Below are positions 50,495 to 52,858 of a stretch of DNA of 64,000 nucleotides, piece by piece (the stretch's first letter is position 1; the number at the start of each line of letters is the position of its first letter). Source of the stretch: Betaproteobacteria bacterium Ga0077527 (GTDB lineage Bacteria; Pseudomonadota; Gammaproteobacteria; Burkholderiales; SG8-41). Below the pieces are notes generated by a model. That model did no database searches. It was not told where the DNA came from and worked only from the letters and a program-made list of their open reading frames with translations. The stretch lies in NCBI GenBank assembly GCA_001464815.1, contig LNDW01000023.1, positions 15,529 through 79,528 on the forward strand, written 5' to 3'. The position numbers were made by a program, and so were the translations under genes.

Positions 50495-51898
50495 TCAGTA
50501 GCGGTAGTGTTCCGGCTTGAACGGGCCATCGACCGGCATGTGCAGGTACTCGGCCTGCTTTTCGCTCAGCACGGTCAGTTCGACGCCGAGTTTTTTCAGG
50601 TGCAGGCGCGCGACCTTCTCGTCGAGGTGCTTCGGCAGCACATAGACCTTGTTCTGGTACTTCGAGCCCTGGGTGTAGAGCTCAAGCTGCGCCAGCGTCT
50701 GGTTGGTGAATGAACTCGACATCACGAAGGACGGGTGTCCTGTGCCGCAGCCGAGGTTCACCAGGCGGCCTTCGGCGAGGATGATCAGCCGTTTGCCGTC
50801 CGGGAAAATCACGTGGTCAACCTGGGGCTTGATGTTCTCCCACTTGTACTGCTTGAGGTTGGCGATCTCGATCTCGGAGTCGAAGTGGCCGATGTTGCAG
50901 ACAATGGCGTTGTTCTTCATCCGCTTCATGTGGTCGTGGTTGATCACGCCGAGGTTGCCGGTGGCGGTGACAAAAATGTCGGCCTTGTCGGCGGCGTAGT
51001 CCATGGTCACCACGCGGAAGCCTTCCATTGCCGCCTGCAGCGCGCAGATCGGATCGACTTCGGTCACCCAGACCTGGGCAGACAGCGCGCGCAGCGCCTG
51101 CGCGCTGCCCTTGCCGACGTCACCGAAACCGCAGACCAGAGCGATCTTGCCGGCGACCATCACGTCGGTGGCGCGCTTGATCGCGTCAACCAGCGACTCG
51201 CGGCAGCCGTAGAGGTTGTCGAACTTGGACTTGGTCACCGAATCGTTGACGTTGATTGCCGGGAAGGGCAGGCGGCCCTCTTTTTCCATCTGGTACAGGC
51301 GATGCACGCCGGTGGTGGTCTCTTCAGTGACGCCGCGGATGTTCTTCTCGATGTTCGAGTAGTAGCCGGGCTGTTCCTTGAGGCGTTTGCGCATCGCCGC
51401 GAACAGCACGTGCTCCTCCTCGTTCGTGCCTTCAGGCGGCAGCGTCTTGTTGCGCTCGTGCTGCGCGCCCAGCGTGACCAGCAGGGTGGCATCGCCGCCA
51501 TCGTCGAGGATCATGTTCGGCGTGCCGCCGTCCGACCATTCGAGAATCCTGTGGGTATATTCCCAGTAGTCTTCCAGCGATTCGCCCTTGTAGGCGAATA
51601 CCGGGATGCCGGCCGCGGCGATCGCAGCGGCGGCGTGGTCCTGGGTCGAGAAAATATTGCACGACGCCCAGCGGATGTCGGCGCCGAGATCGGCCAGGGT
51701 CTCGATCAGCACCGCGGTCTGGATGGTCATGTGCAGAGAACCGGCGATGCGCGCGCCTTTCAGCGGCTTCTTGCCCTTGTTTTCCTCGCGGATCGCCATC
51801 AGGCCGGGCATCTCGGTTTCGGCAATGGCGATTTCCTTGCGGCCGAAATCGGCCTGTTTGATGTCGGCGACCTTGTAGTCAGCGGCTTTGGCGTTCAT
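50495..51898 (-). CDS. ahcY: Adenosylhomocysteinase
   Basis: 467 aa with the YKVADI N-terminus, NAD-binding GYGDVGKG-like motif (GFGDVGKG) and C-terminal EHYRY. Confidence 0.97.
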
Positions 51899-51920
51899 TT
51901 GTGCTGCTCCTGAAAAATAC

Positions 51921-51993
51921 GGGCGCCGTTGTCAGCGTGACCTTCCGAGCCTGGCCGGCGGCGTGGTGCCGGTCCGGTCGCAGCGCCCCTCGG
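51921..51993 (-). promoter_or_regulatory. SAH riboswitch aptamer, proximal copy
   Basis: RNA CCGAGGGGCGCUGCGACCGG..CCGGCCAGGCUCGG..ACAACGGCGCCC fits the SAH-riboswitch core as I recall it (AGGAGCGCUGCGAC / GCCAGGCUC / AACGGCGCUC). SD CAGGAG lies about 10 nt downstream. Confidence 0.75.
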
Positions 51994-52020
51994 GGGTACG
52001 CATGTTTAAAACTGAAAACG

Positions 52021-52055
52021 AAAAAAAGCGCTCGCACCGTTGCCGGTGCGAGCGC
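52021..52055 (-). terminator. Intrinsic terminator forming the expression platform of the distal SAH riboswitch
   Basis: GCGCUCGCACCG-GCAA-CGGUGCGAGCGC followed by U7. The 5' arm is the same GCGCUC that forms the aptamer pseudoknot. Confidence 0.85.
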
Positions 52056-52108
52056 CGTTGATTCTTGCTGAGCCTGGCCGGCAGTAACCGGTCGCAACGC
52101 TCCTCAGC
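52050..52108 (-). promoter_or_regulatory. SAH riboswitch aptamer, distal copy
   Basis: RNA GCUGAGGAGCGUUGCGACCGGUUACUGCCGGCCAGGCUCAGCAAGAAUCAACGGCGCUC. Confidence 0.8.
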
Positions 52109-52115
52109 GGCGCGC

Positions 52116-52121
52116 ATTATA
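52116..52121 (-). promoter_or_regulatory. Candidate -10 box for the ahcY leader
   Basis: TATAAT about 8 nt upstream of the first aptamer; no convincing -35. Confidence 0.35.
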
Positions 52122-52162
52122 GCCGATGCTCGTGTGCGCCATCTCCGGTGGGCGGTATGTCT

Positions 52163-52195
52163 CATAACTTATTGTTTATAATAATATTTTTTGAG
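52163..52195 (+). repeat. AT-rich element, family member E
   Basis: CATAACTTATTGTTTATAATAATATTTTTTGAG; contains the 14-mer TTATTGTTTATAAT also present at 29980-29993. Confidence 0.55.
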
Positions 52196-52207
52196 AACAC
52201 TCATCGC

Positions 52208-52858
52208 ATGATGGATGCCGTTTCATGGCCGCTTGCTTTCGGCGCACTCGCACTGCTGCTGCATGTGGCGGGTTACGCTTGGTATGCGCGCGAAATCTTC
52301 CGCGGCCGCACCCGGCCCAATGCCGCGAGCTGGCTGATGTGGCTGGTCGGTGCCTGGGTCGAGTATGTGACCTTTGACGCCATCGACAGCCACTGGGCGA
52401 CCTCGGCGCTGCCGCTCGCCTGTTTTCTCGGTTGTTGCGCGATCTTCGCGGTGACCGGCCTGCTGCAGTTGGCGAAATGGCGCTCAGGTTCCAGCGATAC
52501 GGTGTATCTGCCCGCGCGCTGGCCGGATTACACCGCGGTCAGTGCCGACCTCGGCGCCTATGCCGCCTACGCCCTCACCGGCGGCGCGGCCTGGGCTCAT
52601 GCCTTCGCCGTGGTGACCTCCATCGTCAGCTTCATACCGATCTGGCGCACCACCTGGCGACACGGCAATGAAATGCCGGGACCGTGGCTGGTGTGGTGTG
52701 CGGCCTATCTGGCGATGCTCGGTGCGGTGGTTGCCGGTGATGGCGGCGAGCGTCTCGCGCAGAGTGTCTATCCGGTCTATTACTTCCTGCTGTCGCTGGT
52801 GGTGGCGGGGTTGTCGTTTACAGGTTTGCGTGAGTACTTGCGCCGCCGCTGGACCTGA
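52208..52858 (+). CDS. Integral membrane protein of unknown function
   Basis: 216 aa from MMDAVSWPL with about 6-7 predicted TM helices; no family recognised. Sits between the ahcY leader and metK. Confidence 0.6.
   Translation: MMDAVSWPLAFGALALLLHVAGYAWYAREIFRGRTRPNAASWLMWLVGAWVEYVTFDAIDSHWATSALPLACFLGCCAIFAVTGLLQLAKWRSGSSDTVYLPARWPDYTAVSADLGAYAAYALTGGAAWAHAFAVVTSIVSFIPIWRTTWRHGNEMPGPWLVWCAAYLAMLGAVVAGDGGERLAQSVYPVYYFLLSLVVAGLSFTGLREYLRRRWT

Follow-up and report, generated by a model that had tools for sequence, protein, structure and literature searches.

The window analyzed here, that is, the whole stretch of 64,000 nucleotides from contig LNDW01000023.1 of Betaproteobacteria bacterium Ga0077527, carries on its minus strand ahcY, encoding S-adenosylhomocysteine (SAH) hydrolase, followed by metF, which is probably co-transcribed with it. 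The leader of ahcY contains two complete matches to the SAH riboswitch family RF01057, a distal one (A1) and a proximal one (A2), with an intrinsic terminator between them. This tandem arrangement is real, conserved and unreported, and its logic is the expected one. We consider it fairly probable that A1 and A2 are two complete, independently folding ON switches for SAH acting in series, the first on transcription and the second probably on translation, with the ON logic and all coupling of A2 to expression inferred. Only mechanical open reading frames (ORFs) overlap the leader, whose features, together with the two genes behind it, are the following.

52121-52116, minus strand: candidate -10 box TATAAT, seen in the sequence; 4 nt separate it from the A1 Rfam match and about 7 nt from the 5' strand of helix P1
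52111-52043, minus strand: distal SAH aptamer A1; RF01057, 59.0 bits, E=2.6e-8, full model positions 1-78; covariation and invariant junctions across 32 species
52056-52021, minus strand: intrinsic terminator of A1, from the terminator scan; 13-pair stem and U7
52020-51998, minus strand: spacer of 23 nt from the terminator to A2; last bases GCGU (52001-51998)
51997-51914, minus strand: proximal SAH aptamer A2; RF01057, 54.3 bits, E=3.1e-7, full model positions 1-78; compensatory changes across species
51911-51896, minus strand: ahcY ribosome-binding region; Shine-Dalgarno sequence (SD) AGGAG at 51911-51907, ATG at 51898-51896
51898-50495, minus strand: ahcY, S-adenosylhomocysteine hydrolase, 467 aa; Pfam AdoHcyase E=3e-149, AdoHcyase_NAD E=9.5e-79
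50451-49606, minus strand: metF, methylenetetrahydrofolate reductase, 44 nt past ahcY; Pfam MTHFR E=3.4e-88

In a scan of the whole window with the Rfam covariance models, A1 and A2 were the sole matches above threshold, each scoring 17-22 bits over the gathering score of RF01057 (37 bits), and a permissive scan of positions 51800-52300 returned other families only as sub-threshold noise. The original prediction, made from the sequence alone, had described two complete SAH aptamers in tandem and had proposed the RF01057 scan as its check; every sequence detail that it gave agrees with the minus strand, and the two matches do not overlap. In PDB 3NPQ, the junction bases in contact with SAH are A-G-G of J2/1, G of J4/2, and G of J1/4 (PMC5049679). 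Transferred by junction position, rather than by residue number, these contacts fall in the motifs CCAGGC, UGC, and AACGG, and both window copies contain all three. Across 32 leaders, CCAGGC and UGC never vary in either A1 or A2, and the first G of AACGG is substituted in A2 of four relatives (L012, L019, L021, L026). Both copies stand directly upstream of ahcY-metF, as for the leaders of SAH-recycling genes. The family's own covariance model thus supports the assignment of both copies as SAH-class aptamers, and we infer that each of them binds SAH.

A sub-threshold match to RF02883 (BcKCsr2, 'Burkholderia sRNA 2'; 17.3 bits against a threshold of 40) covers A1 together with its terminator (52121-52021). 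It may be that the catalogued Burkholderia small RNA (sRNA) is the terminated riboswitch transcript, and an SAH riboswitch is found among the B. cenocepacia sRNAs having Rfam homologs (PMC6321483).

Read on the minus strand, A1 has the layout GCUGAGGAGCGUUGCGACCGG-UUACUG-CCGGCCAGGCUCAGC-AAGAAU-CAACGGCGCUC, in which P1 is formed by GCUGA/UCAGC, P2 by CCGG(U)/(G)CCGG, and the pseudoknot helix P4 by GAGCGU (52102-52097) and GCGCUC (52055-52050). The terminator stem, GGCGCUCGCACCG-GCAA-CGGUGCGAGCGCU, comprises 12 bp and one G-U pair before U7, and its 5' arm includes the entire P4 3' strand of A1. A2 has the layout CCGAGGGGCGCUGCGACCGG-N15-CCGGCCAGGCUCGG-N13-CAACGGCGCCC, with P1 formed by CCGAG/CUCGG plus an extension, P2 by CCGG.../...CCGG, and P4 by GGGCGC (51988-51983) and GCGCCC (51926-51921). 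The extension of P1 arises from the last bases of the spacer, GCGU, which pair with ACGC (51938-51935) and are replaced by AUGC/GCAU in relatives. A hairpin of 5 bp, CGCUG-ACAA-CGGCG (51937-51924), shares sequence with J1/4 and with the beginning of the 3' strand of P4 in A2. After A2 come GUAUUUUUC, then AGGAG, 8 nt, and the ATG, and P4 of A2 ends 9 nt from the SD and 22 nt from the ATG.

An exact TATAAT lies 12-14 nt ahead of the GGRGCG core of A1 in 34 of the 36 tandem leaders, and it is conserved ahead of A1 only, not of A2. The P1 5' strand GCUGAG of A1 starts at 52108, about 7 nt past this box, and therefore the transcript should start at about 52110-52108. The promoter scan gave no -35 match near the TATAAT, and no promoter-like site (-10/-35) in the spacer at 52020-51998.

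The layout recurs well beyond the window. A census of one genome per GTDB species (185,579 species) used the pattern CAACGGCGC-N38-68-GAGGNGCGNTGC-N10-40-CCAGGCT, which joins the 3' element of one aptamer to the 5' elements of a second. The pattern matched 35 loci, and in 31 of these, two RF01057 matches exceed the threshold, with a common orientation and 25-50 nt between them. One of the remaining four is a real tandem clipped by the edge of the locus (L023); the others were rejected, two as single riboswitches with a chance CAACGGCGC upstream (L009, L015) and one, labeled 'Udaeobacter' (L034), as a chance pattern match with no Rfam match. These counts are a lower bound because the pattern demanded the conserved motifs letter by letter and 38-68 nt of spacing. 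As an unbiased sample, the 80 closest metagenomic AhcY loci (72-97% identity) were scanned with Rfam, and 7 of them are tandem, 68 single, and 5 without a match or too short. Motif matching undercounts tandems among these loci, L072 and L078 having CGAGGC where others have CCAGGC. Therefore, the tandem is a recurrent minority state, not a one-off, and it recurs in more than 35 independent assemblies. The search of relatives proposed in the original prediction has thus returned the same layout in 31 GTDB species genomes and in the seven metagenomic loci. All of the carriers are uncultured metagenome-assembled genomes (MAGs) named Betaproteobacteria or Burkholderiales, with taxonomy taken from the record titles. 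None of the census carriers is identical to the window, the nearest showing 83-88% DNA identity, and their AhcY proteins are 74-97% identical to that of the window, whose AhcY sequence is present exactly in an activated-carbon metagenome.

The order of elements is constant in all tandem leaders, namely TATAAT, A1, terminator, A2, SD, and start codon. The A1 type (GAGGAGCG...GCGCUC) always comes first and the A2 type (GAGGGGCG...GCGCCC) always second, and the end of the A2 P4 is found 7-23 nt from the SD and 15-34 nt from the AUG (35 tandem leaders). Where enough 3' sequence is available, ahcY lies downstream in 33 of 34 tandem leaders. The exception, L029 (JAQBFV010000286.1), has a thymidylate synthase-like ORF (MRQYLDLMKQVLEHG...) about 280 nt past the A1-terminator-A2 leader in place of ahcY; the locus may be rearranged, the contig chimeric, or the leader re-used.

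We aligned 32 copies of each aptamer on the invariant motifs, with the variable loops replaced by fixed filler. In A1, 88% of the cells are paired, compared to 30-35% in slid controls, and compensatory changes occur at five pairs, three of them in P2; P4 is 99% paired and P1 (GCUGA/UCAGC) is invariant across the tandem leaders. In A2, 88.8% of the cells are paired; P1 and P2 each have four pairs showing compensatory changes, and P4 is paired in 100% of the cells. Of 28 distinct A1 copies, 27 have GAGCGU/GCGCUC as P4, and all 30 distinct A2 copies have GGGCGC/GCGCCC there. Since P4 is nearly constant within each copy, its support comes from the difference between A1 and A2, where the second pair is A-U in the former and G-C in the latter. 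The closing pair beside the ligand pocket also differs, being U-G in 24 of 28 distinct A1 copies and C-G in all 30 of A2. The two copies therefore differ in P1, P2, and P4, and these differences are fixed across species whose AhcY proteins are 74-97% identical to that of the window; the duplication is therefore old, and both copies have been maintained under structural selection. Structural selection on both copies had been proposed from the covariation between the two copies of this one genome, and the compensatory changes and species-wide fixed differences seen in the 32 leaders are stronger evidence for it.

P4 is the strand-exchanging helix of the SAH riboswitch class (PMC5049679). In all 36 tandem leaders, the P4 3' strand of A1 opens a hairpin of 12-14 bp, which starts at GGCGCUC and has a U-run behind it, in line with the anti-termination logic that the original prediction had read from the distal copy, and the upper stem of this terminator shows C-G/U-A exchanges across the tandem leaders. 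The predicted energy of the terminator hairpin is -28 to -29.5 kcal/mol, against -8.2 kcal/mol for P4 of A1. When P4 is held, the remaining hairpin is GCACCG-GCAA-CGGUGC (-10.3 kcal/mol), 6 nt from the U-tract. A1 is thus most likely an SAH-activated anti-terminator, as judged from its sequence. Because the terminator would outcompete P4 at equilibrium, anti-termination by A1 would need SAH to lock P4 during synthesis, a kinetic control suggested by what is generally known of riboswitches. The same unit, A1 with its terminator, stands alone upstream of ahcY in seven relatives (L041, L050, L051, L056-L058, L116).

For A2, the evidence comes from its position, 9 nt from the SD, and from other lineages, and together these suggest that it acts at or near translation initiation. 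Its P4 is all G-C and is predicted at -11.7 kcal/mol, compared to -8.2 kcal/mol in A1. Outside the window's clade, a hairpin joins the CC that ends P4 to the GG of the SD, both in A2 and in single G-type copies, with the compensatory variants CCGUUC/GAACGG, CCAUUC/GAAUGG, and CCUU/AAGG, which is plausibly a translational ON design. In three loci with a single G-type copy (L062, L064, L067), the P4 3' strand, extended by the four bases behind it (GCGCCCAUUC), pairs with the start-codon region GAAUGAGCGC, with an inner anti-SD/SD helix within this pairing; the predicted hairpin, at -12 to -14.5 kcal/mol, would be the translational OFF state. A G-type copy beside the start codon is the only riboswitch in nine loci (L040, L042, L053, L062-L064, L066, L067, L069). 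A translational role for the proximal copy, one of the two platforms considered in the original prediction, is therefore plausible by analogy with these lineages.

Several observations in the window's own clade weigh against this role. RNAalifold on 16 clade members recovers a 9-bp A2 P1 with compensatory changes, P2, and a small YGCYG/CGGCG hairpin only, and no conserved helix joins A2 to the SD or AUG in these members. In partition-function calculations, the predicted accessibility of the SD rises from 0.59 in the free to 0.77 in the aptamer-locked state in the window, and from 0.43 to 0.52 on average, and the predicted pairing partners of the SD vary from species to species. SD sequestration by A2 within this clade thus finds no support from RNAalifold, accessibility, or partner consistency. 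L041, which is nested in the window's clade in the AhcY tree, keeps A1 and its terminator and has lost A2, and therefore A2 is dispensable in at least one lineage.

The small hairpin, YGCYG-NNAA-CGGCG, is conserved in A2 of the window's clade, where it takes in J1/4 together with the initial bases of the P4 3' strand, and it may be the ligand-free alternative to P4 of A2.

Taken together, these elements point to the following sequence of events. The RNA would begin at A1, whose P4 3' strand GCGCUC doubles as the base of the terminator 5' arm. SAH would lock P4 before the terminator 3' arm is made, about 25 nt later, and allow read-through, as the residual 6-bp hairpin, 6 nt from the U-tract, should not terminate; without SAH, the 13-bp terminator would form and an RNA of about 90 nt would be released. 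Read-through transcripts would carry A2, with its stronger all-G-C P4 ending 9 nt before the SD, and SAH binding to A2 would most likely control ribosome access or another post-transcriptional step. The output would be the product of the A1 and A2 decisions, and such a series pair would give a lower basal leak and a somewhat steeper dose response, with finished mRNAs re-checked against SAH. By calculation, two equal, independent ON switches in series lower EC90/EC10 (the ratio of the effective concentrations for 90% and 10% response) from 81 to 40; the effective Hill coefficient is then about 1.2. The original prediction of a steeper, more digital response therefore holds for its direction and only modestly for its size, and with so small a coefficient a 'digital' response is by itself a weak rationale, which also speaks against the series arrangement. 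The larger gains are probably the lower leak and the re-check of finished mRNAs, both of which have been given as rationales for tandems that combine two mechanisms (PMC9481103).

We also weighed other explanations of the second copy. It is unlikely that A2 binds SAH without being a switch, serving as a 5' element for mRNA stability, Rho access, or folding while A1 alone sets the response. Such a role would agree with the lack of a conserved switching helix in the window's clade, with the small thermodynamic effect on the SD, and with L041, which manages without A2. Nevertheless, P4 and the ligand-contact junctions are invariant in 30 distinct A2 copies whose loops and flanks diverge, which is hard to explain without a ligand-dependent function, and in other species the G-type aptamer is the sole riboswitch before ahcY, with a clear hairpin sequestering the SD or AUG. 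It is improbable that both switches are transcriptional, as in the pseudo-cooperative tandem thiamine pyrophosphate (TPP) riboswitches, with A2 driving the weak terminator CGCUG-ACAA-CGGCG followed by CCCGUAUUUUU. The terminator scan does list 51937-51924 with its T-rich tail, conservation of the 5-bp hairpin extends through the clade and its overlap with the P4 3' strand means that it could alternate with P4, and U-rich tails past A2 are also seen in L003, L004, L014, and L025. But the stem, at 4-5 nt from the U-run, is just 5 bp long, most clade members (L005, L006, L010-L013, L020, L022, L028, L033, L043) and every other tandem lineage lack this U-run, and a distance of 9 nt between the end of A2 and the SD is what translational platforms typically show. 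We accordingly rejected a weak terminator as the platform of A2, and the weaker terminator that the original prediction had offered as the alternative for the proximal copy falls on the same grounds, a 5-bp stem and a U-run in only about 5 of 19 clade members.

The fixed differences in P4 raise the question of whether both copies sense the same signal. A drift of A2 to another ligand or to a markedly different affinity, making the leader a two-input or two-threshold device, seems rather improbable to us. The closing pair of P4, on which the ligand stacks in the SAH class (PMC5049679), is U-G in most A1 copies and C-G in A2, and the second pair is exchanged as well; however, both variants fall within the variation of the Rfam consensus (the position is in lower case), the junction contact bases are unchanged, and G-type copies alone control ahcY in other species. 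It is very improbable that the copies are not in series at all, A2 having its own promoter in the spacer and A1 with its terminator being a small RNA or the end of upstream transcription. The sub-threshold RF02883 match over A1 and its terminator would suit such an sRNA, and several relatives have a co-directional metK immediately upstream. On the other hand, the spacer is only 25-50 nt and mostly U-tract, it has no -10/-35 match, TATAAT is conserved only before A1, and a divergent gene lies upstream in the window, leaving nothing there for the A1 terminator to end. A decaying duplicate or an assembly artifact can be dismissed. General caution on duplicated sequence in assemblies (PMC9481103) is all that speaks for it, and it is refuted by the scores of both copies well above threshold and by the compensatory changes in A2; the differences between the copies in P1, P2, and P4, together with the occurrence of the layout in more than 35 independent assemblies, exclude chance and assembly duplication. 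Two SAH ON switches in series remain the reading that we favor. A further development of it, which we hold to be doubtful, is that the copies are non-redundant, tuned by the fixed P4 differences to different SAH thresholds or selectivity, so that a fast kinetic gate on transcription is followed by an equilibrium gate on the mRNA.

In a neighbor-joining tree of AhcY, tandem carriers are interleaved with A-only and G-only lineages, and one A-only leader falls inside the window's clade, a pattern that fits repeated loss from a tandem ancestor, although a tree of one conserved protein cannot separate an ancient origin with losses from repeated gains. The single transcriptional and translational SAH riboswitches of Betaproteobacteria could be the separated halves of an ancestral tandem, which we also hold to be doubtful. 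The A-only leader in the clade, L041 (Ga0335396_10012398), has an AhcY 91% identical to that of the window, the same synteny, and the same AT-rich divergent upstream region, with about 40 nt of unrelated spacer ahead of the SD where A2 would sit. It is a natural single-switch control for the tandem. More generally, close relatives with only A1, only the G-type copy, or both are natural controls with which the gain from a second ON switch, be it lower leak, a steeper response, or an mRNA re-check, can be tested.

The genes around ahcY and metF add further context.

49517-48282, minus strand: mgtE/CBS gene, following metF, from the gene calls in metagenome contig L036
48282-47902, minus strand: TfoX_N domain gene (PF04993, E=1.3e-30), the last of the ahcY-metF-mgtE/CBS string
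52208-52858, plus strand: ORF of 216 aa between metK and the ahcY leader, divergent from ahcY

Genes with PF04993 have been placed in the SAH riboswitch regulon of Ralstonia, without explanation (Sun et al. 2013, PMC3766115). In the window, metK lies upstream of the ahcY leader on the same strand, with the divergent 216-aa ORF in between; this ORF has no Pfam or NCBIfam match and is called at the same position in metagenome contigs L036 and L037. In six relatives (L012, L022, L033, L035, L038, L043), metK is directly upstream and co-directional, with its stop codon immediately next to the -10 box (…AAATAAGGTATAAT…). In these relatives, the A1 terminator may have the further effect of gating read-through from metK into ahcY.

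Methyltransferases are potently inhibited by their product SAH, and its riboswitch belongs to the small number of natural ON switches that respond to a coenzyme by-product. The original paper on the SAH riboswitch is that of Wang et al. 2008. SAH riboswitches are well documented as single units upstream of ahcY, metF, and metH (Weinberg et al. 2007, PMC1950547). Many riboswitch classes have known tandems, but according to the original prediction no tandem of two SAH units is known to have been characterized. This agrees with the most complete survey of tandem riboswitches, covering RefSeq 80 and 44,270 species, in which SAH is among the classes without tandem examples (Sherlock et al. 2022, PMC9481103, Table 3), and phrase searches of the full-text literature found no report of tandem SAH riboswitches, the papers that mention both terms describing none. 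The survey treats such absences as informative on which metabolites need sharper control (PMC9481103). Its definition of a tandem asks for the same orientation, one 5' untranslated region, no intervening ORF, a gap of less than 300 nt, and no overlap of coordinates (PMC9481103), and the pair in the window agrees with it, with a gap between the two RF01057 matches of 45 nt (25-50 nt in relatives). Since all carriers are MAGs, an isolate-centered survey may have missed the tandem for this reason; the SAH pair fills the gap and shows what isolate-based surveys miss. In addition, two SAH aptamers with orthogonal-looking pseudoknots could be reused in synthetic circuits.

Compared to known systems, each copy resembles the SAH riboswitches of RF01057 in its H-type pseudoknot (P1, P2, P4), its conserved junctions, and its place before ahcY-metF in a betaproteobacterium, and is likewise expected to be ON with SAH, with P4 as the switching helix. 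Unlike the known single SAH riboswitches, the leader has two complete units, in a fixed order and with fixed sequence differences. Bi-mechanism tandems, such as SAM-II followed by SAM-V and the SAM-II doublets, which sense S-adenosylmethionine (SAM), show the same arrangement of a first unit before an intrinsic terminator and a second beside the ribosome-binding site, again with both units binding one ligand of methyl-cycle metabolism (PMC9481103). Nevertheless, the SAM tandems are OFF/OFF and have an evident second translational platform, whereas the SAH pair is expected to be ON/ON, with both aptamers of one class; in the window, the A1 terminator is present, and on the side of A2 we find the distance of 9 nt to the SD, plus an SD hairpin in other lineages only. 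The pseudo-cooperative tandems (TPP in Bacillus anthracis, ZTP, c-di-GMP, and glutamine among others) likewise place two independent, complete riboswitches for the same ligand in series on one mRNA, with a steeper response and lower leak expected, but, unlike the SAH pair, they mostly have terminators in both units (PMC9481103). The glycine riboswitch also has two homologous aptamers per leader, which dock and share one expression platform. A1 and A2, in contrast, are split by a full terminator with U7, and they are therefore two riboswitches rather than one two-aptamer sensor of the glycine type.

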